64,000 bases of DNA from Psammoneis japonica (Eukaryota), in assembly GCA_008632985.1 (NCBI GenBank), contig QPGO01000122.1, forward strand, positions 62,001-126,000. Direction: 5' to 3'. The notes below the pieces were generated by a model, which was given only the letters and a program-made list of their open reading frames with translations, searched no databases and had not been told where the DNA came from. This document shows positions 11,351 to 64,000 of the stretch, one piece after another. How positions within the stretch are numbered: the first letter of the stretch is position 1; each line of letters starts with the position of its first letter. A program made the position numbers and the translations under genes.

Positions 11351-13150
11351 ATGTGCTACCCCAAGTCGATTTGGGACTTCTTTTGCTGTTGCTGTCCTTC
11401 TCTATACAAGGTAGAGGATGAGGATGATGAAGAAGTGACTGACAAGTCAGCCGAGAATCTGTCTCACGTTGGCATTGCTGCCTACCGCACTCTACGAAAG
11501 AACTTTCCTCGCGCCCATCACAGCTGTTGGAACGTTACGAGTGCGGTTGTAGTTGGCGACTTGCAGCAAACGCCTCGAGAGCTTGTGTACGAAGACCCTC
11601 CCCCGGATCATGACGAGTGGTTCGTCGACAAAATGTGCAGCGTCTTGTGCAAGACGCGTGTGTGGTGTGATGTGATGAGTCTTTCGCCGCCAGATGGGCT
11701 GTTTCTAGAACGGATCCAGCAAAGCTTAAAGACAGTCGCCGAGAACAACAAGGACAATACATCGCCTGTCATTGTTCGATTCATGTTTGGGAATATTGTT
11801 GGTATGCCCGTCAACTGTACTAAAGTCATCAAGCAACTTACGAGAGAGCTGCCACCAGACGCGAATATCCACCTGTGGGTCGGTGCATGGAGGAAGGGTG
11901 TTACTTGGAATCATGCGAAAATAGTTGCCGCAGACGGACGATTCCTTCACACTGGTGGACACAATCAGTGGCATTATCATTACCTGAAACATAATCCTGT
12001 TCACGATGTGAGCTTGGAGATGGAGGGACGAGTGGCTCATGATGCGCATCGTTTTGCTAACGAGCAGTGGCGTTTTATCCAGCGTATTCAGGTTACCGCT
12101 TGCGGATGGGTGGTGGATAAAATGCCCGATGGGTTACCTATTGCGGCAAAGACACGAGTTACGGTGAGTGAGTATCCCTCCTTTCCAAAGGCCTCCATCT
12201 TTCCGCCGCAGTATGAACCAACTCTGGTGGATCGATACACGATTGAAAATGCTGTTCCAGTAATTAGCATTGGACGTCAAGGGACGCTTCACTGGCGGAC
12301 AAGACCATCTGATAATGCCATTTTGGCGATGCTTGGGAGCGCAAAGGAGATTATTCGCATGGTGCTGCAGGATCTCGGACCGGTATGCATCCCCGGAACG
12401 AAGATTCCTTTACCTGGTTGTGTCTGGCCAAAGGAATACCTGTCTGCATTGGGGAGTGTGTGAGTATCTTGTTGTGATATGGATGTTCTCGTGTGCATTG
12501 GGATACAAACTTGGTGATGTTCCATTCTCACTTTTCCCAATCGCCGTTGTTTTTGATTCAGCATATGGGAGAAAGGTGTGGATGTAGAGATTGTTCTCAG
12601 CAATCCGGGGAGCATCCCTGGTGGTCTAAAAGCCACCGAAGCTTGTTATGGAAATGGGTGGTCGTGTGTTGACGTGGCTGCTGAAATTATAAAGACCGTT
12701 CAGGTCCAGTTTCCTGAAGCGAATGATTCGCAATTACGCAAAATGGTGGCGGAGAATTTACGGGTATGCTTTTTGAAGGAACCATTGGGGGCGTCGTTTA
12801 GCGACGGAACGACTATGGGATTGCATTCCAAGCATTTCATCATCGATGATGTGTGTGCATACATTGGTTCACAGAATCTTTACGTTTGCGATTTGGCGGA
12901 GTGGGGTGTGGTTGTGGATGACGAAACAGCGACCAAGAAAATGATTGATGAGTATTGGTCTAGAATTTGGCGCTATTCTTTCACAAACACGGATTGCGAT
13001 GTACAGGAAGTTATGGATGGTCTCAAGATTGATCGTGACGCTGAGCAGCAAAACTTTTTTTCCAATCCAATGGAGAAGAGAAAGATGCAAATGGAAATGG
13101 CGAAAATGCAAACGCCTACGCGGAACATGGGATATGAAAGTGACGAATAA
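11351..13150 (+). CDS. Phospholipase D superfamily protein with two HKD motifs; exons 11351-12459 and 12562-13150
   Basis: HxKxxxxD motifs WNHAKIVAADG and LHSKHFIIDD..AYIGSQNLY; intron 12460-12561 (GTGAGT...TTCAG) restores the frame. Confidence 0.9.
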
Positions 13151-13329
13151 GCAGTGTCACTAAAGCAATTAGTTACGCCGTTGATGATAAGCAGCTTTTT
13201 CTCTCTTATGAGGCATGCAAACTTTGTTTTTCAGACTGTGTCTTCTCCATTTCTGCCCTCTCGTCCCTCTCTCCTTCACTTGAGACACATGAGGATCCAA
13301 AACAGTGCACAATGGCCGCTCGGATCCTC

Positions 13330-15130
13330 AGATTCTCATGGGTGTGCGCTGATGACTTGGCTCGAGAGTAAATCCTGACGGTCTGTGTTCCAGCCTGGGC
13401 TCTCGGGCCTCTGCTACCGCAACTCTTTCCTCTCCGACACTTGCTCTACCCTTTCTTCCAAAGTGCCCAAGCTCCTTTCTTGCCTTCATGACAAGCAAAC
13501 GCAAATTCAGCTTTACAAACACTGCTTCGTTCCTTCTTCCGCTCACCTTCTTGGTGCTGACTTCTGCCACATTGGTGACCCTGACAACCTGCCTGATCCC
13601 TTCCTTTGGACTTCCTCCTTTCAAGACTTCCTCCTCACTGCTGTTCACTGCTTCCTTTGATGTGCCTTCACCCATGCTGATGCTCTTCCTCCTCACTCCC
13701 TTGCCACAACTGTTCACCGCTTCCTTCAATGCACTTCCACCCATGCCAATGCTCTTCCTCCTCACTCCCTTGCCATCACTTTTCTGCCTTCTTCTCTTTG
13801 CGGCATTGGCCTTCAGGATCCTGCTGTCACCACCATTCCATCCTTCCTCATCTCTCTGCTCCATTCCTTCTGCTTTGCCACATGTGAAGCACAGCTCCCA
13901 TCTGGTGACAGCCTTGATCTCCCACAATGCTTCTGTCTGTCCCTCTCCTCCTGGAACAACCCTTGCTCTCTCCTCTGCATCTGCACTCTCTTTTGTCACT
14001 TTGCTTCTTCCCCCCTTTCCTCCAATTTGCCTTTTTGTCCTCCAACTCTTCCTGTTTTGGTCAAGTCAGCAATGCTTCCTGATTTGGCACATTGACTTTG
14101 CCATGCTCATTTGATGTCCAACTTGCTCTCCCTTCCTTTTTATCTCCTCTCACCAGCCTCCCGCTTCACTCCCTTTTTTGGCATCTCACTGCCTCCCGCC
14201 TTGCCACCAAGGAGTGTGCACCATGGCTGTTCAATGCAAGCTTCATCTCCCAGTGCTTCCTTCTTCTCTTGTTGTTGCCACTCCCTGTCCATGTGGTCAC
14301 ACTGCTCTCTTGATGCCTTTGGGGATCATGCCTTCACCTGTGACAAGGCAGTCACAAGTCCAAGCTCTTTAATGGCATTCTTTGTGATGCCATCTCTGTT
14401 CTCATGTGCACACTCTTGGGCCCCATGCAAAACTTTGCCATTCTCCCAACAACACTCACCTCGAGCCTGCAAATCTTCTTCCACACCACCCCCTCCTTCA
14501 CCCAGCTGTTGTTGGCATTGCCATCCCACCTCCCACCTCTCTTTCTGCTCCCTCCCATCATTGAAACATTGCTGTCAATGTCACCATTCCCAAAGCTCCT
14601 CCTTGCCATCCTCTCCTGATCTGCCTGCACCCCTTCTTCTCTTGTTTTAACCAAGGCACACTGTGCAAGTTCAAGGTCAAAGTTTTCCGGCCCTTCCATG
14701 TCTTCTTCTGATGGCTCTCTTGCAATTCAATCCCTCAATGCCAATGTGGTCTTTCTTCTTCCTTTTGCTGTTGATCTTCTTGGTGGCTGACCTCACCTTC
14801 ATTTTCCATTGGCTCCTCTTTGGCATGTCTTTGCCTTCCTTCTGCTCTCAGCTCAAGCCTCCTGACCCAACTCTTCCACTTTGCAGCACTCTGACACTTC
14901 CTTCAATGCCTTCTCTTGTGCTCTCTCTTCACCCTTCACTCTCCTCTCCTCCACTGACTTTGCTTGGCACCAAATCACCTCTGTCCATTCTGGCAGTGCT
15001 CATCATTCTTCTTCTGCTTCTCAACAGGCTGTGCAAACCCTTGGATGCAACATTGTGCATCACTCCACCGCCCACACCCTTTGCTTCCTCTCTGCTCTCT
15101 GCTCTCTTTCTTTTCTGGCTCCTGTTTTAA
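13330..15130 (+). mobile_element. Decayed 3' part of a non-LTR retrotransposon with a restriction-like endonuclease (CRE/R2-type)
   Basis: Frameshifted CPCG..LDAFGDHAFTC zinc knuckle at ~14286-14342, then EPANLL..HPAV (cf. EP..RPAD) and IAVNVTI (cf. AxDVT) endonuclease-like remnants; TpA/CpG depleted. Confidence 0.6.
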
Positions 15131-49217: not shown

Positions 49218-51575
49218 ATGGGAGCAAAATTAACGCTTTTCGTGGCGTTTGTGCGGTATGCCGACACCTTTTCTGTCGTCCCTCCGTGCTTCGGTGGCCG
49301 GCTGCACATGAGAAAAACAACACCATTGCAACAGGCAAGCGATGATTCTTTGGAGGACCTGCGTCGAATTGTAGCGCAACGCGATGCGGATTGGTATCGT
49401 GAATTCGTTGTAGATGTATTGGGAGAAGAATACGAAGCACCGCCAGGAAACAACGACGACACGCATGAGGAACCGACTGAAACAACGAGCGAATCATCAT
49501 CAGTGACAGAGACCGCAACGACCGAACCACTCGATATTGCCTCAAAATCCGAAAAAGAACACCAGGATAACGTCGAAGAATCGTCTAGTTCTGATGACGT
49601 TCATGCTTCTTCACGAGATCCATCTCATGATGTTGAATTACGTCCCGCATCGGATCATGATGATCCGGACAACGCGCAAAGTGAACCCTTCATTATATCT
49701 GATTTCGATAATGGCGTTTCTTCATCAATGCAGTCTCAAGATGAAGATCTGTATCCCAGTCTTAAATTATCCCTTGCAGAGAATGCTGATGTCTTGAACT
49801 GCGAAGAAAAAGAGGAAGAAGAAAATACGAACGAGGCACTCGTCAATATCACCGAACAACCAGAGGCTGAAGCGGATATCGATCCAAAACATCTTAAAGG
49901 TGAAACAGAGGCAACAGAAAAGCGAGAATCGGATAGTTTACAATATAACAAGAATGAGGCAGACGAGGAACCAACCAAAGCTGAAAGACCTCCTCTGGAG
50001 GTTGTTGATGAATCGCCAGTTCCGGTAAAGGAAACAATGAAAGCAAAAGATGAAGCTATACCTCCAACGGAGGTTGTCAATGAATTTCCTGTTCTAGAAG
50101 AGGCTCCATCAAAAGCGGGAGATGAAGATGGAAGACATCCTTTGGAGGCTGCGGATGAACTGCCTCTCCCGGAAAAAGAACCAAAAGTGGAAGAGGAAGC
50201 GAGACCTCCTCTGGAGGTGGTTGATGAATTACCTCATTCACCAAAAGAAGAAGCAAAATCCGCTCGTGAAAGTAGTCTCGATGGTATTAGCCCATCACAA
50301 GTCAGAGACGAAGGAACCGTGTCGCAAGATGTAGTCAAAGAAACGAGCAAAAAGCCACAGGATGAAAGTGCCCACGCAGGGGTTGCCAAGGATCAAATCA
50401 CAGAAAAAGAATCAACAGAGTCGATAGAACTCCAGAACGAAGGCCGACCCGGCAATCATGACAACAATGCGTCAGTATCCCAACCATTAGAAACGGATTC
50501 AGCTTGGAAAGACGACAACGAACAAAACTATGTTGTGGAATACCGAGATTTGTACAGCAAATCCGTCCGAACCGTTCCCTTGACGACCTTGACAAAGCTA
50601 GGATATCGTAAAAGTGAAATACCCTTCTTGCAACCAGATGCTCTCGACTTGATTGTGCAAGACAAGATTCCAAAGCCGTCGACTGGATTGCCTTCTCATT
50701 GGAAGATTTCAAAAAACGTAAAGAAAGTTCTAACCGATGATGTAAGAATTGTCGAAAAAACCAAAAGAAACAAACAGCAAAATGGAGGATCAAACGCCTG
50801 CAGCTTTGACGGAAGACGATCATGAAAAGGATGAGGTTGGTAGGAATGCTACTTTGAGTAGACGACCAGTGAGCGTCCGGGATGAAGACAAGGAGGATTC
50901 TCAAAGGCGGGTACCACCCAGTCAGCAAGAAAAAGGAGTAGACGAGTTGAGCCGCCGGAAAGAAGGGAGAGAAGACGCGAGGAGCCACGGATAGAATCAA
51001 GGAGAGAACGAATGCCCCCAAAGTCAACAAGACGAGCTTCATCACAACCGAGGCCGCAGCGAGCTGAAGCAAGACGACGCACCTCGAACGCGACCAAGCG
51101 AATATATACAGGTCGACGAGGAAAGTCAGTGCAGTTGCCAAGAGGAATTATGCAAAACAATACCCCAAAGAGGACAGGTCCTTGGATGGATATTAACACA
51201 TTTCGAGACTTGTTGAGCGCAGAGTCAAAAATGAGATTACGAATCCTTGGAGAAGGTTGGACGGATGCGGTGCGAGACGAAGCCGACTGGAGGTATTCTA
51301 CCTACGCCAAGTGGTTGGAAATGCTTGATACCGGAGTCGGAGAACCATTGTTTGAGAGTCGTAGTGACAGAGAACGGCGAAGAAAGAAAAAGCCAAGAAC
51401 AAAGAATATGGAGGCGGACTTTGATCCGGGTAGTAGGCGCTCGGCGGAAGGAGAGCCGAGACAACAGACCCCCAGAGCACGACAAGATAGAATTGTCTCG
51501 GATAGACGACTAGACGAGCGCATGAATGCATCAGCCGAGCGTCGCCGAAGAACGAAGGACCACAACCACGAATGA
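49218..51575 (+). CDS. Acidic low-complexity protein with signal/transit-like N-terminus; frame broken by two compensating shifts (~50760 and ~50890-50990)
   Basis: ORFs 49218-50825, 50749-50994 and 51012-51575 abut; the paralogous fragment at 52068-52289 reads RIVEEKKKETNSKMEDQ in one frame, which supports the join. Confidence 0.7.
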
Positions 51576-51959: not shown

Positions 51960-52290
51960 AAGATCATAAAATCAAAAGTCTATTCTGGTGCTATAGAAAC
52001 CAGAGGGAGTCTTGATCGATTCAACTTGTTGGGACTTTTCTTCTGGTTTTGCAAGCCATCCTAGTATTTGGTTTCGATAATGACATTTCTTCAATTCCAA
52101 AGCCGTCGGCAGGATTGCCTTCTCGTTGGAAGATTTCACAAAAAGGTAAAGAAAGTTCTAACCAATGAAGTACGAATTGTTGAAGAAAAAAAAAAAGAAA
52201 CAAACAGTAAAATGGAGGATCAAGCTCCTGCAGCTTTGACAGAAGATGAATTTGGAAAGGATGAGCTTCCCGACGTCAAAGATCCTTGAG
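51960..52290 (+). pseudogene. Partial duplicate of 50500-50840
   Basis: ATTCCAAAGCCGTCG..GGATTGCCTTCTC..GGAAGATTTCA and KKVLT.EVRIVE..ETNSKMEDQ.PAALTED are shared. Confidence 0.8.
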
Positions 52291-54770: not shown

Positions 54771-55070
54771 AGTCAGGTCGCGTGGGTCGCGCAGAAGTGC
54801 GCACCGTACAGCACAGTAGCACCCTGTTTCGAAAGAACAACCGTTATATGTTTTAATTAATTTGGACGCCCGGCGCAAAACTCACTTAACAGGTAAAAAA
54901 ATGCAGCAAAATGATTGGTGCAAGCAATCGTCACGCCTCTATTTTCTGATAGCAGCGAGCGCGGCAATCCAAAATCTTTTGGTTTCAGACTTCGAAGTAG
55001 AGAGTTCCCCTCTACCAGCACTAGAGAGAGAGGAGGAACCAACATCGATGGAAAGCTGAGAGTCTGCTCA

Positions 55071-57558
55071 TTCCGGAATAGATTTGGCAACTTTCAGAAG
55101 AAGTAACCCGAAAGTTCTCTGAAAGTTGATGTAAATATAACATCACATGTCTGTACACACACACAACCTTGAAACGCGCCAGAATTTTTACATCATCAGA
55201 TTCACCACCACCCGCAAGACTTCTGCGATACCGTGCTAAAGTTCGAGACTAGAGACACGGCACGGAGGAGATATCGTCTCACAAAAAAGCAGACGCAGCC
55301 ACACAGCTGTCACAGAAGCCACCCGCAACAACAGAGCAGCCGTGCAGCATGCCCACTTCGACCCTTGAGGCGCCAATCATGAAGGCGTCTAGGGCCCCTT
55401 CTACCATAAGTGGCGATAAGTCTGCAATCAAAACGTTTGACGCGTTTCAAGACAAAAAACAAGACAAGCCGTTTCACGGATTGGAGGAACGTCATGTGGA
55501 TGGATGCCACCTCAGGACACTTGTGATGCGCTTCAGCAAGTTCTTGTCGGATGAGCCCATCTATCGGTATGACAATCCCTCCAACGGGCTAGTAGGAATT
55601 GACGGAAAGCAGCGAATTTTTGGAAAGGTCAAAGAAGCGCTAAAAATGAAGTTCCCCAAGCACCCTGACTGGGAAGACGAGGACAAGTGGTGCAAGCCTC
55701 TGTTCAAAGATGTGGCAAAGGCCACTGATAAAGCCAACCTCCTTAGCATGGAGCATTCTGACAAAAGGACTTTGCCCCTGGTTCCAAACGTGTCTTCAGA
55801 ATATGTTCGAGCCAAGCAGCGAAATACTATTCTTACGTCTGACAGAAATTCAATGTTGAGACGCGAGAACGGTGCATTCGCAAACGACATCGAGACGTTG
55901 CTTCTTGCTCTTGTTCTGCAATGCAATTATCCAATGATGAATAATGGCCCTCTTCAGCAGCGTTGCTGGATTTTGATGGGTGCTATGGCTGCTGGACGTG
56001 GAGGGGAAGTGAGGCATCAACGGTGTGATGAATGGTTCTGGGATTTATTTTATGAGAATTTGGAAGCAACGTGGTGTGAGCCGAAGACTGTGGATTTGTA
56101 TGGACTCCTCTTCCCACCAAACAAAAAGTCTTATCTCTTTGATCTCTACCATGCTTTCGCGTGTTTCTATTCTTGTGAGAAAGGTCTCTATCGTCCAGAC
56201 AGCATGGAGAAGGAGCTCCACAAGTACACTTTTCCAGACTTGTGGAGCGTGAGCGACAAGTATGTTGCCGCTAAGTTGACGTCTATTATTCGAAGCAAGG
56301 TCAACCCGGTTCTACAGAACGATTGTTCTTCTAAGTCTATTCGAGTTGGTATGGCTACATTCTTGAATTCGCATCGAGGAGTGTCAGTTGAAGAAGCGGA
56401 CGCTCGAGTTGGATGGGCGCCCGGAGCTGCCAATGGCAAGACTTACAAACGAATTACACCGCAGCTCACTCTTCCAGCGGCAAACGCGATGATGGGCTGG
56501 GATGATACTGCCGGCAAGAAATTTGCTCCAAACTTGGAATGCCTTGGGAGCCATGTACAAGATGATGTTGAACGTCTCATTGAAAAATTGTGTGTGATCT
56601 CTGACTCTCTTGCTCAATTTCTGAAAGGAGGGGAGCTGCGTCCCTTCTTGCGTTCTTGCACGGCTAGTGTGATTCGGCATCACGCTGAAGTTTCGAAGGA
56701 GCTTCGTCAAAACCATCAAATCGTGTACACGTTGGAGCGTGCTGCAGCAGAAGCGAAGATTCGTGATGGTGACACGGCTGACACCTCACAAGTGCTTCGG
56801 ATCTGGGGAAAGAAAATAGACGCTAGCTTTCAAGACCGCAACCCGGATCTTTCAAGTGACATCAACCTTGCTTTACAGATAAAGCAGCAGAATGAGCTAC
56901 TGTCTCGTGTATTGTCAGTGTGTGATGCACAACGTACCGAGCTTTCCGAGCAAGCCCACGCGATTCGCAACTTGGAGATGGCTCAGCTTGAGGCCAATCA
57001 GTCCAGTAAGAAAAGGAATGTTGAACTCCTGTCATCGGAGGAGGAAGATAGCACGACGGATTTTGCGGACGAAAAAACATCCAATCGAGACGGCGGCATC
57101 GAGTGCAACGTTGTTGATGAAAACGCCGGCTCCACTCAAAACAACAATGTGGCTGCCTATGCTGTAAGCCCACCAGATGCTGATGCCACTGCTGCTGATG
57201 ATGGTGACGCGCCGGCTGCTTCTCGACGTCGTGTGGATTCTGACGAGTCAGCCACTGCGACTCAGCCTGTCACGGCCTCCACGCGAAAGCAACGACCTCC
57301 CGCTGTCGCGACACTGTTCTCGGCCGGAGTTGTGAGTAAGAAGTTTTCAAACAAAAAGAAAAAGAAACTGACATTGCAGGAGCAAGTGGATGGCTTGGTA
57401 AACAGCACAGGCGCAAAAATCTCTCTGCATGCATGCCCAAGTTTCTTCAAGCAGCATGGACACCTTTCTTCGTCATCCAAGGAGCGGCTTTTGCACCTCA
57501 AGTTTCCAAACAGTGAAGCAGAGCCACAGAAGCTGCGCGCGAAAGTTCAATTTTTCCG
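55071..57558 (+). mobile_element. Internally deleted, inverted copy of the tyrosine-recombinase/RusA element (2488 bp)
   Basis: Reverse complement of 59506-61968 joined to the reverse complement of 57726-57752; TTCCG at both ends (55071-55075 and 57554-57558). Confidence 0.9.
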
Positions 57559-57862
57559 AATCTCCATGCCGTACCGTAGTCCATTTCGGTTGCTCGCCAA
57601 TCAAAGAAATGAGGCACAACATTTTAATTATTTTAATAATTATATATATTTCAATGATCACACCCAAAACTCATACCTCATCTTCCGAAAAAACCGCCAG
57701 AGCTTACCCCCCCATTCCCCCCCCACGGAAAAATTGAACTTTCGCGCGCAGCGCGAACTTTCGGCGAAAGTTGCCCCCTTTTGGAGCGCGAAGCGCTCCA
57801 ACTTTCGGCTGAAAGTTGGGAAACGGAGGGGGCGCGCGGAGGAAAAAAAGTTCGTCCGTTGA
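55349..57862 (+). CDS. Tyrosine recombinase, C-terminally truncated at 57532; the ORF runs on into non-homologous sequence
   Basis: AAGRGGEVR (catalytic Arg box), SSKSIRVGMAT (HxxR-like), ARVGW, GKTY (catalytic Tyr candidate); many Y->C/H changes versus the other copy. Confidence 0.75.
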   Translation: MPTSTLEAPIMKASRAPSTISGDKSAIKTFDAFQDKKQDKPFHGLEERHVDGCHLRTLVMRFSKFLSDEPIYRYDNPSNGLVGIDGKQRIFGKVKEALKMKFPKHPDWEDEDKWCKPLFKDVAKATDKANLLSMEHSDKRTLPLVPNVSSEYVRAKQRNTILTSDRNSMLRRENGAFANDIETLLLALVLQCNYPMMNNGPLQQRCWILMGAMAAGRGGEVRHQRCDEWFWDLFYENLEATWCEPKTVDLYGLLFPPNKKSYLFDLYHAFACFYSCEKGLYRPDSMEKELHKYTFPDLWSVSDKYVAAKLTSIIRSKVNPVLQNDCSSKSIRVGMATFLNSHRGVSVEEADARVGWAPGAANGKTYKRITPQLTLPAANAMMGWDDTAGKKFAPNLECLGSHVQDDVERLIEKLCVISDSLAQFLKGGELRPFLRSCTASVIRHHAEVSKELRQNHQIVYTLERAAAEAKIRDGDTADTSQVLRIWGKKIDASFQDRNPDLSSDINLALQIKQQNELLSRVLSVCDAQRTELSEQAHAIRNLEMAQLEANQSSKKRNVELLSSEEEDSTTDFADEKTSNRDGGIECNVVDENAGSTQNNNVAAYAVSPPDADATAADDGDAPAASRRRVDSDESATATQPVTASTRKQRPPAVATLFSAGVVSKKFSNKKKKKLTLQEQVDGLVNSTGAKISLHACPSFFKQHGHLSSSSKERLLHLKFPNSEAEPQKLRAKVQFFRISMPYRSPFRLLANQRNEAQHFNYFNNYIYFNDHTQNSYLIFRKNRQSLPPHSPPTEKLNFRAQRELSAKVAPFWSAKRSNFRLKVGKRRGRAEEKKFVR

Positions 57863-58098
57863 ATCTTGGCTGTGAATCGTGAGAGTGCGTTAAGTCGTGC
57901 GTCAAGTCGTGCGTTGAGTCGTCTTGAAATTTGAAAAAAAATCAAAAATCAATCGAAACACGAAAGCTCACGCGATGAGCGATGGAAACATGTTACCGTC
58001 GCACGCGAATCCTCATACGGAAGGCCTTTTCTCCTACTGTACTGTGGAGGATACTGTAGAGAAGTTTCCTGAATACCCAAAGTGCAGTGGATGGCAGA

Positions 58099-58725
58099 AT
58101 GGTTAAGAAGCGAAGTTTTGAGGGAGGAACTGCCGACGACGCAACAGTTGTAGACAGCGCAAGCGACGACGAAGGTGGAAAAGACTTTGAGAGTGTGGCT
58201 ATTGCTCCAAACCTACCGGCATCATCAAGATTTGGCAGTGCTGGCAAAGGTGAACCATCAAGGAAGAAGAAACGAGGGCGTCCTCGAAAGATCCGATCGC
58301 CCAAATTCTCCATCTCGGACACGCCCATATTTTCATACACCGGATCTTCCATTGAATTTGACGTTGTCGGAAAGCCAATGCCAAAGTCAAGACCAAAGCA
58401 TGGGTGGAATGGAAATGTTTGCAATCCAAACCAAGCTGATGAGAAAGAGTTTGCAAGTGTAGCATCAGATCTCTGCCGATCAAGACTAGATTCAGTACCA
58501 AAGTTCCGTGACGGTGTGTTGTTGAAGGCTCGGATTGAATTTACTTTTCCTGGGAAGAGTCTCAAGGATACAGGAGACATTGACAATCTCTGTAAGTTTG
58601 TTTTGGACAGCTTAAACACAGTATTGTATCAAGATGATTGGCAAGTGTCACACTTATCGGCGAAAAAGGTGCTTGCTTCGTCCGAATCTGCCGGACGTAC
58701 AGCAGTCGAATTGAAGCGAATTTGA
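58099..58725 (+). CDS. rusA: RusA-family Holliday junction resolvase with an N-terminal AT-hook
   Basis: FDVVGKPMPKSRPK N-terminal strand; GDIDNLCKFVLDSLNTVLYQDDWQV matches the RusA DxDNxxK..D.L....DD.QV catalytic signature; KKRGRPRK AT-hook. Confidence 0.85.
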   Translation: MVKKRSFEGGTADDATVVDSASDDEGGKDFESVAIAPNLPASSRFGSAGKGEPSRKKKRGRPRKIRSPKFSISDTPIFSYTGSSIEFDVVGKPMPKSRPKHGWNGNVCNPNQADEKEFASVASDLCRSRLDSVPKFRDGVLLKARIEFTFPGKSLKDTGDIDNLCKFVLDSLNTVLYQDDWQVSHLSAKKVLASSESAGRTAVELKRI

Positions 58726-59133
58726 AACAAATAATTCTATACGATTATAACAAGCACTGTATCACCTACTCACTTGACGTGTGCCTAGAGTAGTCATGTT
58801 TTATTTTAGCCCACTTGTGTCGTGAGACAAGCACTTGCTTCGTCTGAATCGGCTGGACGCACGGTCGTCTCTCTGAACCAAATTTGAAATAGATAGTATA
58901 TTATTTCACTTGGCATGTGCTATACCTTACTTTGGTGCACTTCTTTGACTGGCAAGTTGTGGAGCCGTCGGCATGAAAAGTATACATTTTTCGTCTGAAT
59001 AGATCGGACGCATGACAATCTGGCGGACGCAAAATCTGGAGTCGTTGCACCGCACCAAATATGAAATAGACAGTTCTATAAGCTTCTATTGGTACAGTAA
59101 CACACAATTACTTTACATACATTTTACTTTCAC

Positions 59134-61690
59134 CTAATTCTTTGCATGTGGGTTCACGGGTTTTTTCGGACTAGTTCCAGAAGCTTTGGATACAACCTTT
59201 TTCACAAACCCTACCAAGACGCTCGTTCGCTGCTCGCCGATGGTTGATATGTTCTGATTCTTCTTGTACGCTATAACTCGAGCACCTAGACCTATGAAGG
59301 TAGGCTGTGCTCTTCCCTTCTTCTTGTTATCCAGGGGGCTCTTCATGCCAGCGTCTTCTTCCATCTTTCTCATTTTTTGCAGGCAAGTGTTTTGCACGGC
59401 GTAACAAACATTGTGGAATTCGACGGATGCATGGTCATGAATACGTATCGTATGCCACTGGTCTTCCGTCATGACGTGTTCTAGGAGCTCCATAGCTGCT
59501 TTAAACTTCTGTGGCTCTGCTTCACTGTTTGGAAACTTGAGGTGCAAAAGCCGCTCCTTGGATGACGAAGAAAGGTGTCCATGCTGCTTGAAGAAACTTA
59601 GGCATACATGCAGAGAGATTTTTGCGCCTGTACTGTTTACCAAGCCATCCACTTGCTCCTGCAATGTCAGTTTCTTTTTCTTTTTGTTTGAAAACTTCTT
59701 ACTCACAACTCCGGCCGAGAACAGTGTCGCGACAGCGGGAGGTCGTTGCTTTCGCGTGGAGGCCGTGACAGGCTGAGTCGCAGTGGCTGACTCGTCAGAA
59801 TCCACACGACGTCGAGAAGCAGCCGGCGCGTCACCATCATCAGTAGTAGTAGCATCAGCATCTGGTGGGCTTACAGCATAGGCAGCCACATTGTTGTTTT
59901 GAGTGGAGCCGGCGTTTTCATCAATAACGTTGCACTCGATGCCGCCGTCTCGATTGGATATTTTTTCGTCCGCAAAATCCGTCGTGCTATCTTCCTCCTC
60001 CGATGATAGGAGTTCAATATTCCTTTTCTTACTGGACTGATTGGCCTCAAGCTGAGCCATCTCCAAGTTGCGAATCGCGTGGGCTTGCTCGGAAAGCTCG
60101 GTACGTTGTGCATCACACACTGATAATACACGAGACAGTAGCTCATTCTGCTGCTTTATCTGTAAAGCAAGGTTGATGTCACTTGAAAGATCCGGGTTGC
60201 GGTCTTGAAAGCTAGCGTCTATTTTCTTTCCCCAGATCCGAAGCACTTGTGAGGTGTCAGCCGTGTCACCATCACGAATCTTCGCTTCTGCTGCAGCACG
60301 CTCCAACGTGTACACGATTTGATGGTTTTGACGAAGCTCCTTCGAAACTTCAGCGTGATGCCGAATCATACTAGCCGTGCAAGAACGCAAGAAGGGACGC
60401 AGCTCCCCTCCTTTCAGAAATTGAGCAAGAGAGTCAGAGATCATATACAATTTTTCAATGAGACGTTCAACATCATCTTGTACATGGCTCCCAAGGCATT
60501 CCAAGTTTGGAGCAAATTTCTTGCCGGCAGTATCATCCCAGCCCATCATCGCGTTTGCCGCTGGAAGAGTGAGCTGCGGTGTAATTCGTTTGTAAGTCTT
60601 GCCATTGGCAGCTCCGGGCGCCCATCCAACTCGAGCGTCCCGCTTCTTCAACTGACACTCCTCGATGCGAATTCAAGAATGTAGCCATACCAACTCGAAT
60701 AGACTTAGAAGAATAATCGTTCTGTAGAACCGGGTTGACCTTGCTTCGAATAATAGACGTCAACTTAGCGGCAACATACTTGTCGCTCACGCTCCACAAG
60801 TCTGGAAAAGTGTACTTGTGGAGCTCCTTCTCCATGCTGTCTGGACGATAGAGACCTTTCTCACAAGAATAGAAACACGCGAAAGCATGGTAGAGATCAA
60901 AGAGATAAGACTTTTTGTTTGGTGGGAAGAGGAGTCCATACAAATCCACAGTCTTCGGCTCACACCACGTTGCTTCCAAATTCTCATAAAATAAATCCCA
61001 GAACCATTCATCATACCGTTGATACCTCACTTCCCCTCCACGTCCAGCAGCCATAGCACCCATCAAAATCCAGCAACGCTGCTGAAGAGGGCCATTATTC
61101 ATCATTGGATAATTGCATTGCAGAACAAGAGCAAGAAGCAACGTCTCGATGTCGTTTGCGAATGCACCGTTCTCGCGTCTCAACATTGAATTTTTGTCAG
61201 ACGTAAGAATAGTATTTCGCTGCTTGGCTCGAACATATTCTGAAGACACGTTTGGAACCAGGGGCAAAGTCCTTTTGTCAGAATACTCCATGCTAAGGAG
61301 GTTGGCTTTATCAGTGGCCTTTGCCACATCTTTGAACAGAGGCTTGTACCACTTGTCCTCGTCTTCCCAGTCAGGGTGCTTGGGGAACTTCATTTTTAGC
61401 GCTTCTTTGACCTTTCCAAAAATTCGCTGCTTTCCGTCAATTCCTACTAGCCCGTTGGAGGGATTGTCATACCGATAGATGGGCTCATCCGACAAGAACT
61501 TGCTGAAGCGCATCATAAGTGTCCTGAGGTGGTATCCATCCACATGACGTTCCTCCAATCCGTGAAACGGCTTGTCTTGTTTTTTGTCTTGAAACGCGTC
61601 AAACGTTTTGATTGCAGACTTATCGCCACTTATGGTAGAAGGGGCCCTAGACGCCTTCATGATTGGCGCCTCAAGGGTCGAAGTGGGCAT
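59134..61690 (-). CDS. Tyrosine recombinase (~851 aa once a +1 frameshift at 60639-60641 is corrected)
   Basis: ORFs 60533-61690 and 59134-60651 join when one extra G is removed (the other copy has GG); R / S-K-S-I-R / W / Y catalytic motifs; long low-complexity C-terminal extension. Confidence 0.85.
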
Positions 61691-62254
61691 GCTGCACGGC
61701 TGCTCTGTTGTTGCGGGTGGCTTCTGTGACAGCTGTGTGGCTGCGTCTGCTTTTTTGTGAGACGATATCTCCTCCGTGCCGTGTCTCTAGTCTCGAACTT
61801 TAGCACGGTATCGCAGAAGTCTTGCGGGTGGTGGTGAATCTGATGATGTAAAAATTCTGGCGCGTTTCAAGGTTATGTGTGTATACAGACATGTGATGTT
61901 ATATTTACATCAACTTTCAGAGAACTTTCGGGTTACTTCTTCTGAAAGTTGCCAAATCTATTCCGGAAAAGAAAAATTGGTCGCACTGTCCGTCCGTCGC
62001 CATGCATCCGAGATGAAAATCAGACGTGGTGCAAGTAGCTAGTGTGGTGAATCATCGGCCGCGATGCTAAAAAGAAGACACTGTTGCACCACATCATCAA
62101 AAGAACATAGAGACAAGAGATCACCATCATTAAGATCTACGTTGACAATCTAAAGCACTGGTTTTTAAACACACAATTGCGCTGAAACCCCCAAGCAATC
62201 TCTCCACGAGTCTTCACCGGCAATCTCAAGATCCCGCCGCCGACGGTTGGTGTG

Positions 62255-63445
62255 TTACATGGGCTCCAACCACTGCCAGTGCTAGCAGCACACAGGCTCC
62301 CACTGCCACCAGCACCTGCAGCAAAAGGCTCCAACTGCCTCCAGCGCCACTGGCACACAGGCGCCCACCGTCACCACTGGCTCCCACCGCCACCACTGCC
62401 AGCAGTGCACAGGCTCCCACTGCCACCACTGCCAGCAGCAAAACACCTCCAATCACCACCACTGCCAGCAGCGTGCAGGGGCACCATCAACACCAGATGA
62501 AAAGAATCCAACCGCCTCGAATGCCAGTGGCACCCACCGCCACCAGACAAAAAGGACAGTGGTGCACAGGCTCCAACCGCCGCAAGCGCTGGCAGCTGTG
62601 CAGGGTGCAGCCTCCCACTGCCACCAGTGCCAGCATCATGCAGGGGCACCCACCGCCACCAGATAGAAATGACAGCAGTGCACAGGCTCCAACCGCTGCC
62701 AGTGCCAGCAGCTGTGCAGGATGCAGCCTCCCACTGCCGCCAGTGCCAGCATCACACGGGGGTGCCAACCGCCACCAGATAAAAAAGATGGTTGTGCACA
62801 GGCTCCAACATTTGCCAACGCCAGCAAATGTGCAGGATGCAGGCTCACACCGCCACCAGTGCTGCAGCAGCAGCACACAGGCTGCTGCTGCCGCCAGCGG
62901 TTGTGGCAAAAGGCTCCAACCGCCTCCAGTGCCAGCGGCACACAGGATCACACCACCACCAGTGCTGGCCTTGACACACAGGCTCCCACTGCAACCACTG
63001 GCCAGTGGCAAAAAAGCTCCAACCACCACCAGTCCCAACAGCACACAGGGGCACCCACCGACATCACATGGCGAGGCTCCAAACGCCTCGATGGTCACCA
63101 GCACACAGGCTCCAACCGCCGGATGCAGGCTCACACCGCCACCAGTGCTGCAGCAGCAGGACACAGGCTGCCACTGCCACCAGTTCTAGCAGCAAAAGGC
63201 TCCAACCACCTCCAGTGCCAGCAGCACACAGGATCACACCGCCACCAGTGCTGGCCTTGATGTGCAGGCTCCCACTGCAACCACTGGCTAGCAGCAAAAA
63301 AGCTCCAACCACCACCAGCACCAGCATCATGCAGGGGCACCAACCGCCACCAGATGAAAAGGACAGCAGTGCACAGGCTCCAGCCACCCCCAGTGCAAAA
63401 GCAGCAAAAGGCTCCTGCCGCCGCCAGTGCTGCCACATTCAGCCC
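62255..63445. repeat. Degenerate minisatellite array built on CACAGGCTCC(C/A)AC(T/C)GCCACCAGTGC(C/T)
   Basis: The core GGCTCC(A/C)AC recurs many times with irregular spacing; nearly TpA-free. Confidence 0.8.
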
Positions 63446-64000
63446 TGCCACAACACACAGTCCAGTCCATGAATTTATGTTGAAAACAACACCGTCAGAG
63501 ATGCCACCAACGAGACAGATCTCTTTCAAACTTTCCAACACATTGTCACATCTAGAAGCACACACTGTGGCATGGCTGCGGGAACGCACTGAAGACGCCG
63601 CCGCCGCATCATCATCATCGTGAAAGCGCCGTTTGCGTTGGCCTCACGCAAATTTGAATGAGGCCTGATTGGTGCAACTGCCATTTCAGCATCACCCCAC
63701 GTAACATTGCGCACGTAGAATCCTGCACAAGTTTTGTGAACGCATGGAAGGACAGGCCGAGTGCGACCATTTTTTCAAATCTCCACAGTCCATTGTGGAA
63801 CACTTTTGACATGCTAAACACGACCTGATTTGGACCGTTGGTATTTTAATGCATTCTACAGACATGTGGGCGTGCATTAAAATAGGTCTGGGGGTCAAAA
63901 ACTCCAAATCGCGACCCCCAAGTGTTCCACAGTTTCAAAGTCATCGAAAATGTCCAAAAACGCCTTCTGACTGCACTTTGGCTGTGAACATCACGGCAAG

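Follow-up and report, generated by a model that had tools for sequence, protein, structure and literature searches.

A probable Crypton-type transposon in Psammoneis japonica with a RusA-family gene beside its predicted tyrosine recombinase

The element and its two copies

A stretch of 64,000 nucleotides from Psammoneis japonica (contig QPGO01000122.1 of GenBank assembly GCA_008632985.1, positions 62,001 to 126,000 of the forward strand; hereafter the window, numbered from its first letter) contains a full-length discrete element of 4243 bp, designated copy B, at 57726-61968, with CGGAA at either end. Its two genes are convergent, a RusA-family gene on the + strand and a predicted tyrosine-recombinase gene on the - strand, and the locus probably represents a Crypton-type element with a conserved RusA partner. 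A preliminary description made from the sequence of the window had given the element the same length, limits and gene arrangement, and these stand. The features of the locus, including a shortened second copy (copy A), are as follows.

55071 to 57558, - strand: copy A, an inverted deletion derivative, with 728 N-terminal recombinase codons in an intact frame, no RusA gene and 27 bp of left terminus
57559 to 57725, no strand: spacer of 167 bp, whose C-rich end abuts the CGGAA of copy B and which holds an inverted core-like TTCCGAAAAAA
57726 to 61968, no strand: copy B, the full element, delimited by the limits of its similarity to copy A and by unrelated flanks
57726 to 57730, + strand: left CGGAA core and crossover point, where similarity to copy A starts and right after which (57730) a junction found in reads switches partner
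57731 to 57830, + strand: left subterminal cis region, with five GAAAGTT/AACTTTC heptamers, two palindromes whose stems are 7 bp long and a nested palindrome of larger size
58099 to 58725, + strand: RusA-family gene, 208 aa from the first ATG (the listed open reading frame (ORF) starts at a GTG at 58087), with an acidic SIM-like (SUMO-interacting-motif-like) stretch, an AT-hook and the RusA domain
58726 to 59133, no strand: intergenic region between the convergent genes, in which the 3' end of RusA is repeated twice more in degenerate form (direct-repeat families D1 and D2)
59134 to 61690, - strand: tyrosine-recombinase gene, 851 codons if read through, its frame broken by an extra G near 60639-60641
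61911 to 61963, + strand: right subterminal region, with three AACTTTC/GAAAGTT heptamers
61964 to 61968, + strand: right CGGAA core, where similarity to copy A ends, within the palindrome TTCCGGAA (61961-61968)

Comparison of 57726-61968 with the window by self-BLAST returns three matches, one of which is the element itself. The second, at 55071-57532 in reverse orientation, scores 98.99% over 2463 alignment columns, and the third pairs the first 27 bases of copy B with 57558-57532, the left terminus kept by copy A. A repeat finder reports the two copies as two inverted arms split by one indel. Copy A (55071-57558, 2488 bp) has no equivalent of 57753-59505, which holds the RusA gene and the last 123 recombinase codons, and because it keeps the left terminus without this interior it is an internal-deletion derivative of the full element. 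At all four ends CGGAA is exactly where the two copies cease to resemble each other, and the four flanks are mutually unrelated; both ends of the element, which the preliminary description had placed by means of the second copy, are thereby confirmed. The left ends of copies A and B face each other across the spacer, and the right end of copy B reads TTCCGGAA, an 8-bp palindrome. Rfam gives no match in 54800-62300, and there is no tRNA in the window. A scan for bacterial promoters and terminators, a type of scan not relevant to a eukaryote, came out near shuffle expectation.

The two genes and their relatives

The 851-codon gene is, by its predicted fold and motifs, a tyrosine recombinase. In copy B it is split into ORFs of 385 and 505 codons by one extra G relative to copy A, in which the first 728 recombinase codons are open. 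Contigs were also assembled (k=31) from runs of one sample (run X1 and run X2) and aligned to 54900-62100, and an X2 contig spanning 60125-60698 lacks one base at 60639, so that the break may not be real, or other copies may be intact. It may be an assembly error or a polymorphism, and the 851-aa frame is a read-through. The enzyme of about 851 aa named in the preliminary description is borne out in its predicted fold, while its frame in copy B is interrupted.

An AlphaFold model of residues 1-520 has a predicted local distance difference test score (pLDDT) of 75. In a second-look structural alignment (VIA-align), every entry in ranks 1-37 is a tyrosine recombinase, Ndc10 or a topoisomerase IB, on which the assignment to the tyrosine-recombinase fold is based. 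The best match is Flp (1p4e_B), with a Z of 14.2 and a root-mean-square deviation of 3.7 over 229 aligned residues, followed by Ndc10, a Crypton-derived kinetochore protein (about 12), Cre (10-11), XerH (9.7), lambda integrase (7.8) and human topoisomerase I (6.8). The Crypton-derived QRICH1 gives a Z of 5.2. Foldseek alone is weak on the 520-residue model (E 0.05-0.5), and its top matches are nevertheless recombinases.

Homologues of the recombinase number 14, with 29-43% identity; they are unnamed, come from environmental samples or assembled runs, and lie on contigs of 1.7-6.8 kb. R217 (in GRGGE), K246 and R332 are invariant in all 15 aligned sequences, W356 is invariant among the 11 closest, and Y366 is shared by at least 90% of the 15. 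The spacing of these residues resembles that of the catalytic residues of Cre (R173, K201, R292, W315 and Y324). Against Pfam the recombinase has matches at chance level only, and one family member has a weak match to Phage_int_SAM_5 (0.0052). No relative of the recombinase was found in IMG/VR or among 185,579 prokaryote genomes (GTDB).

The second gene is assigned by alignment to the RusA family, with an apparently intact active site, and the RusA-signature nuclease of the preliminary description is upheld at this level. The match to Pfam RusA (PF05866) has an E of 7.3e-11 and 43.2 bits, above a cut-off of 22.8, and four relatives (P0017, P0019, P0020 and P0045) score 49.7-53.4 bits. A profile of the element's protein and four relatives was matched to E. 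coli RusA (1q8r); the match is weak (E 0.46) and was used solely to map residues. In it D164, D166, K170 and D183-D184 align to D70, D72, K76 and D90-D91 of E. coli RusA, which we take to be its catalytic residues, and the Asp/Asp/Lys/Asp columns are invariant in all five aligned sequences. Foldseek with an AlphaFold model of the protein points the same way: of the ten matches with E <= 0.001, seven are chains of E. coli RusA, and the top ones (2h8c, 2h8e and 1q8r) have E values of 3e-5 to 7e-4 and template-modelling scores (by target) of 0.62-0.66. A search of the PDB with the single RusA sequence found nothing relevant. The RusA domain is preceded by the acidic stretch TVVDSASDDE and the AT-hook KKKRGRPRK.

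When 1.84 billion representatives were searched with a profile, the protein proved to belong to a large subfamily: 8418 proteins match at E <= 1e-3, of which 430 have E <= 1e-10 and 36 have E <= 1e-30. Features were counted in 46 proteins (P0015-P0060), comprising 44 profile matches and two metagenome translations.

DxDN[LM] motif kept: 41 of 46
RusA domain preceded by at least 40 residues: 37 of 46
GRP-type AT-hook: 18 of 46
[VIL][VIL]D[LD]x acidic motif: 16 of 46

These searches expose a large undescribed RusA group with features that look adapted to the nucleus. The relatives in IMG/VR are ordinary phage versions, at most 36% identical over at least 98 residues, with higher values on short stretches only, and GTDB genomes contain no RusA relative with the narrow patterns searched. 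Two members of the subfamily, P0020 (435 aa) and P0045 (402 aa), have two tandem RusA domains per chain and may be single-chain versions of the RusA dimer. In the element itself, the last 60 or so nucleotides of the RusA gene and the sequence downstream recur in two more degenerate occurrences within 58672-59074, at spacings of 162 and 177 bp.

The pair recurs outside the window. In a metagenome scan 97 stretches matched, and three of them encode relatives (L001, L002 and L003). A tBLASTn search with the RusA protein finds it at two of these three loci, with 47% identity in L001 (E 2e-32) and 48% in L002 (E 5e-33). The recombinases of both are 37-45% identical to that of copy B, and in both RusA lies downstream of the recombinase on the opposite strand, which is the convergent order of copy B. 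Each of the two RusA proteins carries an RGRGRPRK AT-hook. With RusA in the same convergent position at two of three related loci, a one-off capture, which the preliminary description had named as a possible refutation, is not what was seen; L003 is too short to bear on it. Judged from these sequences, RusA appears to be a conserved second gene in this lineage, with the pairing kept at 37-48% protein identity, so that a Flp/Cre-type recombinase and a RusA Holliday-junction resolvase recur together in an environmental relative.

It may be asked whether RusA is a passenger, concerned, for example, with general repair of stalled forks or of damage that the element causes, or with a benefit to the host, and kept by linkage rather than mechanism. 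Other accessory genes without an obvious recombination role, such as the C48 peptidase gene, are carried by Cryptons in the available part of the Crypton survey (PMC3212892), the RusA subfamily is large, with its 36 representatives at E <= 1e-30, and the deletion derivative copy A has no RusA. However, both the pairing and the convergent order have been kept across the divergence just described and the RusA active site is invariant, while copy A lacks both complete genes and is simply non-autonomous. A passenger is unlikely.

Cryptons are DNA transposons that encode a tyrosine recombinase and have terminal direct repeats of 4-6 bp and no terminal inverted repeats (TIRs), according to the part of the survey available here (PMC3212892). 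The same part describes CryptonS elements in oomycetes and Phaeodactylum, with repeats of 5-6 bp that are mostly TATGG (Kojima & Jurka 2011; PMC3212892), non-autonomous derivatives, and a second gene, the C48 peptidase, in some CryptonS and CryptonF elements. The present element shares with them a single tyrosine recombinase, 5-6 bp direct repeats taken as the crossover substrate and the absence of long terminal repeats (LTRs) and TIRs, and also an apparently low copy number, non-autonomous deletion derivatives and a second ORF, as in some members (PMC3212892, in part). CGGAA stands at the ends of both copies as a short terminal direct repeat without TIR or LTR, the recombinase is the only mobility enzyme in the element, and its two genes are the only ORFs with homologues. 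The catalytic boxes correspond by eye (GRxxE ... KT ... S-x-S-x-R-x-G ... ARGGW ... Y) to those in supplementary file 4 of the survey, and closeness to Crypton recombinases consists of this motif resemblance (PMC3212892, in part) and of structural nearness to the Crypton-derived Ndc10 and QRICH1.

Unlike the CryptonS elements of the survey sections available, the element has RusA and not a C48 peptidase as its accessory gene, termini of CGGAA and not mostly TATGG, and K or R at the HxxR histidine. CryptonS-1_PTri, at 4671 bp and with CTGTAAG termini, is consequently a different element (PMC3212892, same sections). These sections do not mention RusA, and a literature search, in which Repbase and Dfam were outside the scope, found no RusA linked to a Crypton or to any other eukaryotic tyrosine recombinase or transposable element. 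It also found nothing relevant on RusA in diatoms, algae or six protist genera, or on Cryptons in connection with a Holliday-junction resolvase, and met CryptonV only as a class name. The statement in the preliminary description that no Crypton family encoding RusA is known thus agrees with the literature, but its 'new element class' is too strong, since all structural features except the accessory gene match Cryptons (PMC3212892, in part). By every structural criterion tested the element is a Crypton with RusA as a new accessory gene, and not a new class; the recombinase clade is unrecognised by Pfam. Such elements have probably been missed by routine annotation, given that the recombinase family is invisible to Pfam.

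Each protein also has relatives outside the Cryptons. The element's RusA is like that of E. coli prophage DLP12 and phage (1q8r, 2h8c) in Pfam family, in fold and in the equivalents of D70, D72, K76 and D90-91. It differs from E. coli RusA in about 90 extra N-terminal residues, which include the acidic SIM-like stretch and the AT-hook, and from phage RusA in being encoded on a transposon in a eukaryotic chromosome. A bacterial-type junction resolvase in a eukaryotic mobile genome is likewise found in the A22 resolvase of poxviruses and nucleocytoplasmic large DNA viruses (PMC13236599), which differs in having a RuvC-like fold and in serving viral concatemer resolution, not transposition. For the recombinase, the best structural matches are Flp of the 2-micron plasmid and Ndc10, and Flp inverts DNA between inverted sites; unlike the 2-micron system, the element is integrated, has no REP/STB-type partition genes and shows no sequence similarity to Flp detectable by HMMER.

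Two further kinds of mobile DNA were considered and rejected. The diatom plasmids pCf1 and pCf2 are similar in size to the element. They encode serine recombinases (ORF217/218, in a set with ORF482/484; PMC2873285, in the part available), and a plasmid of this type was set aside since the element has a tyrosine-recombinase fold. A DIRS/Ngaro-type retroelement was set aside because 57726-61968 contains no reverse transcriptase or RNase H ORF or Pfam match.

Ends, read junctions and a possible route of transposition

All eight GAAAGTT/AACTTTC heptamers of copy B are terminal, five within 92 bp of the left end and three within 57 bp of the right, and none occurs in the approximately 4 kb between the two clusters. 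If the ends were joined as a circle, one inverted heptamer pair would flank the core. The left palindromes are TTCGCGC-GCA-GCGCGAA and GGAGCGC-GAA-GCGCTCC; together with the larger nested palindrome they account for the stability with which the first 105 nt fold as single-stranded DNA, which exceeds that of shuffled sequences (z -3.55, with 0 of 200 shuffles as stable).

At the left terminus of L002, about 75 nt inward from CGGAA match copy B nearly letter for letter, including CGGAAAAATTGA, with a local alignment score of 86 against a best of 29 in 200 shuffles. Beyond this terminus the two share only two short nucleotide matches. An exact 17-mer, TTCGCGCGCAGCGCGAA, is common to the left region of copy B and L003. 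In L003 (positions 1-60) this palindromic sequence stands beside GAAAGTT and CCGGAA, upstream of the recombinase gene rather than of RusA, so that the end sequences may be arranged differently there, or else this contig may run through the junction of a circle or of tandem copies. Retention of the left-end sequence in L002 and of the 17-mer in L003 indicates conserved cis sites. The upstream region of L001 does not resemble the right end of copy B (score 17, below the shuffle maximum of 30).

The read contigs contain a junction at the core. Two of them follow the spacer to 57730 and then continue TGAGCAGACTCTCAGC, and one follows the left flank to 55075 and then continues TGGGGGGGG. These continuations are the reverse complements of the outer flank of copy A and the left flank of copy B, respectively (16/16 and 9/9 letters), and the junction, seen from both sides, therefore runs from the left flank of copy B through a single CGGAA to the outer flank of copy A. 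It cannot have been made by the k=31 assembly, because only 5 bp are common to both contexts. It could equally be an inversion of copy A and the spacer between inverted cores, or an empty or excised site with a flipped spacer, and in either case the recombination breakpoints fall exactly at CGGAA. The junction partner is not among the read loose ends listed.

The X1 contigs also show a second kind of junction at 55073 and, at 55083, a diverged right end in which CCCCGAACAGATTG is followed by GCAAC. Several single-letter variants are present, with a C/T difference at 54953 in the flank at about half depth, where depths are sums over contigs and not a measure of copy number. The diverged right end and the single-letter variants mean that more copies or alleles exist.

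Two rival accounts of the locus turn on this arrangement. In one, 55071-61968 is a single composite element with terminal inverted repeats of 2.46 kb and a unique RusA centre, as might be suggested by the 99% complementarity of the arms and by both outer ends being the same 'right' end. The inner end of arm A, however, joins 27 bp of the left terminus of copy B directly to the recombinase gene, as an internal deletion would leave it. Moreover, the read junctions break at the outer core of A and the inner core of B, not at the two outer ends, and L001 and L002 show a single-copy gene order, all of which makes a composite element extremely improbable.

In the other, the element is an integrated small nuclear episome or plasmid of the 2-micron kind, in which RusA serves replication by cutting branched or concatemeric intermediates or cruciforms at the terminal palindromes, and has no part in integration. 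It would suit this account that Flp is the best structural match, that the two copies are inverted with an alternative isomer in the reads, that the left end is strongly palindromic, and that the contigs of the homologues, all 1.7-6.8 kb, could be unit-length molecules. On the other side, both copies sit within chromosomal DNA and their flanks are unrelated, there is no partition or replication gene among the ORFs with homologues, of which there are only two, and the terminal palindromes have stems of no more than 7 bp. L001 and L002 also have no terminal overlap, and jointly do not close a circle within 3966 bp. An episome is quite unlikely.

The best explanation overall, and a fairly probable one, is a Crypton-type transposon of a microbial eukaryote, without reverse transcriptase or DDE transposase, from a lineage with RusA as its second gene. 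Several observations weigh against this explanation. On the side of the recombinase, the Pfam integrase is absent from all 15 family members at E <= 1, and HMMER searches of the PDB with a single sequence and with a profile were empty, so that the call rests on predicted fold and motifs; of the hidden Markov model and structure searches that the preliminary description had proposed for both proteins, Pfam and fold identified RusA, and fold but not Pfam identified the recombinase. The usual histidine of the HxxR motif is replaced by K330 (SSKSIR), and by R in most homologues (SSRSIR); type IB topoisomerases have a Lys at the position of the first His. The RusA model is of low confidence (pLDDT 54, from a five-sequence alignment). 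As regards the pairing, L001 and L002 are 98.5% identical over 2855 bp and thus represent one further lineage and not two. The L003 contig ends within the recombinase gene, too short to reach any RusA gene, and its gene order may differ from that of copy B, as its upstream region resembles the RusA-side end. Linkage is the only tie between RusA and transposition.

The locus itself adds three points of the same kind. Copies A and B are not clearly independent insertions, being 167 bp apart with their left ends facing, and may have arisen from a single insertion followed by rearrangement. No circle junction occurs among the read loose ends listed. Finally, a 9-nt C-run outside the left CGGAA (57717-57725) is conserved in the distant relative L002 at 8 of 9 letters, and would be either part of the functional site, which may then extend further left, or a target preference. 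Beyond the C-run, the spacer has no similarity to the L002 sequence left of the core (scores 25 and 23, shuffle maximum 36).

To our knowledge, movement of a Crypton has never been shown, and it is unclear how these recombinases complete an exchange with almost no shared sequence. For the Crypton-type element a possible route can be outlined, in which the circle itself, the sequence of steps and a part for RusA in transposition are all inferred. The recombinase would bind the repeats of GAAAGTT type beside the core at either end and recombine the two CGGAA cores, releasing a circle whose junction, TTCCGGAA, would lie between inverted GAAAGTT arms. The circle would then reintegrate by recombination of its core with a genomic CGGAA. 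The second strand exchange would probably be inefficient, as donor and target share little beyond approximately 5 bp. Where it fails, for want of homology or of a second binding arm, the element's RusA dimer, whose AT-hook and basic N-terminus would bring it to nuclear DNA, would cleave the four-way intermediate, so that the product became fixed.

That RusA acts on the junction made by its own recombinase, as the preliminary description had proposed, can be put forward tentatively. The full two-enzyme scheme, in which the recombinase exchanges only one pair of strands between the TTCCGGAA core and a CGGAA anywhere in the genome, after which RusA cuts the resulting junction, is on balance doubtful. 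A parallel may exist in the Xer-dependent integration of CTX-type phages, in which there is one pair of strand exchanges and replication by the host apparently resolves the junction. By analogy, the recombinase reaction would halt at a Holliday junction and be finished by another activity, and the element would bring its own resolvase. The cut could be made at the CC steps of the palindromic core: TTCCGGAA has one on each strand, and E. coli RusA prefers to cut 5' of CC, which together give a concrete cleavage prediction.

If the scheme were true, integration by a two-enzyme route would require neither a matched overlap region nor a second arm site. The element would then be the first eukaryotic transposon known to have its own junction resolvase, and Crypton integration with about 5 bp of identity would be explained. 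That a lineage keeps a resolvase beside its recombinase suggests that the Holliday junction is what limits the reaction. The element also lends itself to experiment, as its two proteins are small, its core is defined and its end sequences are conserved.

Differences between the copies and other features of the window

In the region shared by the two copies (55071-57532 and 59506-61968) there are one indel and 24 substitutions. All 24 substitutions have C or G in copy A and T or A in copy B, and 23 of them are CpA/TpG in A and TpA in B, giving TpA counts of 65 and 88, respectively. The homologues of the recombinase bear on the direction of change, and at seven sites the copy B residue belongs to their consensus class.

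Residue 59: M in 8 of 10 homologues
Residue 115: aromatic in 11 of 11
Residue 223: F or Y in 13 of 14
Residue 226: Y in 11 of 14
Residue 415: Y or F in 14 of 14
Residue 441: M in 5 of 14, V in none
Residue 697: L in 11 of 12

At 558 the homologues favour the residue of copy A (V in 9 of 14), as they do weakly at 577 and 416. The agreement of copy B with the homologues at the seven sites makes change from TpA to CpA/TpG in copy A the likelier direction; to judge from these residues, TpA would be ancestral and the change the reverse of fungal repeat-induced point mutation (RIP). RIP of the fungal type, with CpA changed to TpA in the full copy, was rejected, being opposed at seven informative sites and weakly supported at two to three.

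Variants in the reads hit the same TpA steps on the opposite strand, at 59599, 60445, 60447 and 61348, and differences between L001 and L002 have an ordinary mixed spectrum. The element is less depleted in TpA than the host sequence, with observed/expected ratios of 0.55 in copy B and 0.40 in copy A. In the host sequence (window positions 1-55000) the ratio is 0.30 for TpA, 1.48 for CpA/TpG and 0.59 for CpG. Differences limited to TpA versus CpA/TpG could be the trace of a mutational process that acts on specific dinucleotides in this genome.

Elsewhere in the window, 62100-63600 has 54-58% G+C and nested repeats of 33, 116 and 286 nt, and is open in several frames on both strands. These frames would encode a low-complexity protein rich in Pro, Thr, Ala and Gly, and one of them gave no Pfam match. 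At 50667-50838 and 52094-52268, three adjoining direct repeats, 85-92% identical, lie about 1430 bp apart, as if a segment in or next to an acidic ORF rich in Glu and Lys had been duplicated locally. Strong strand asymmetry extends over about 2 kb at 13001-15000, with GC skew to -0.42 and AT skew to -0.38.

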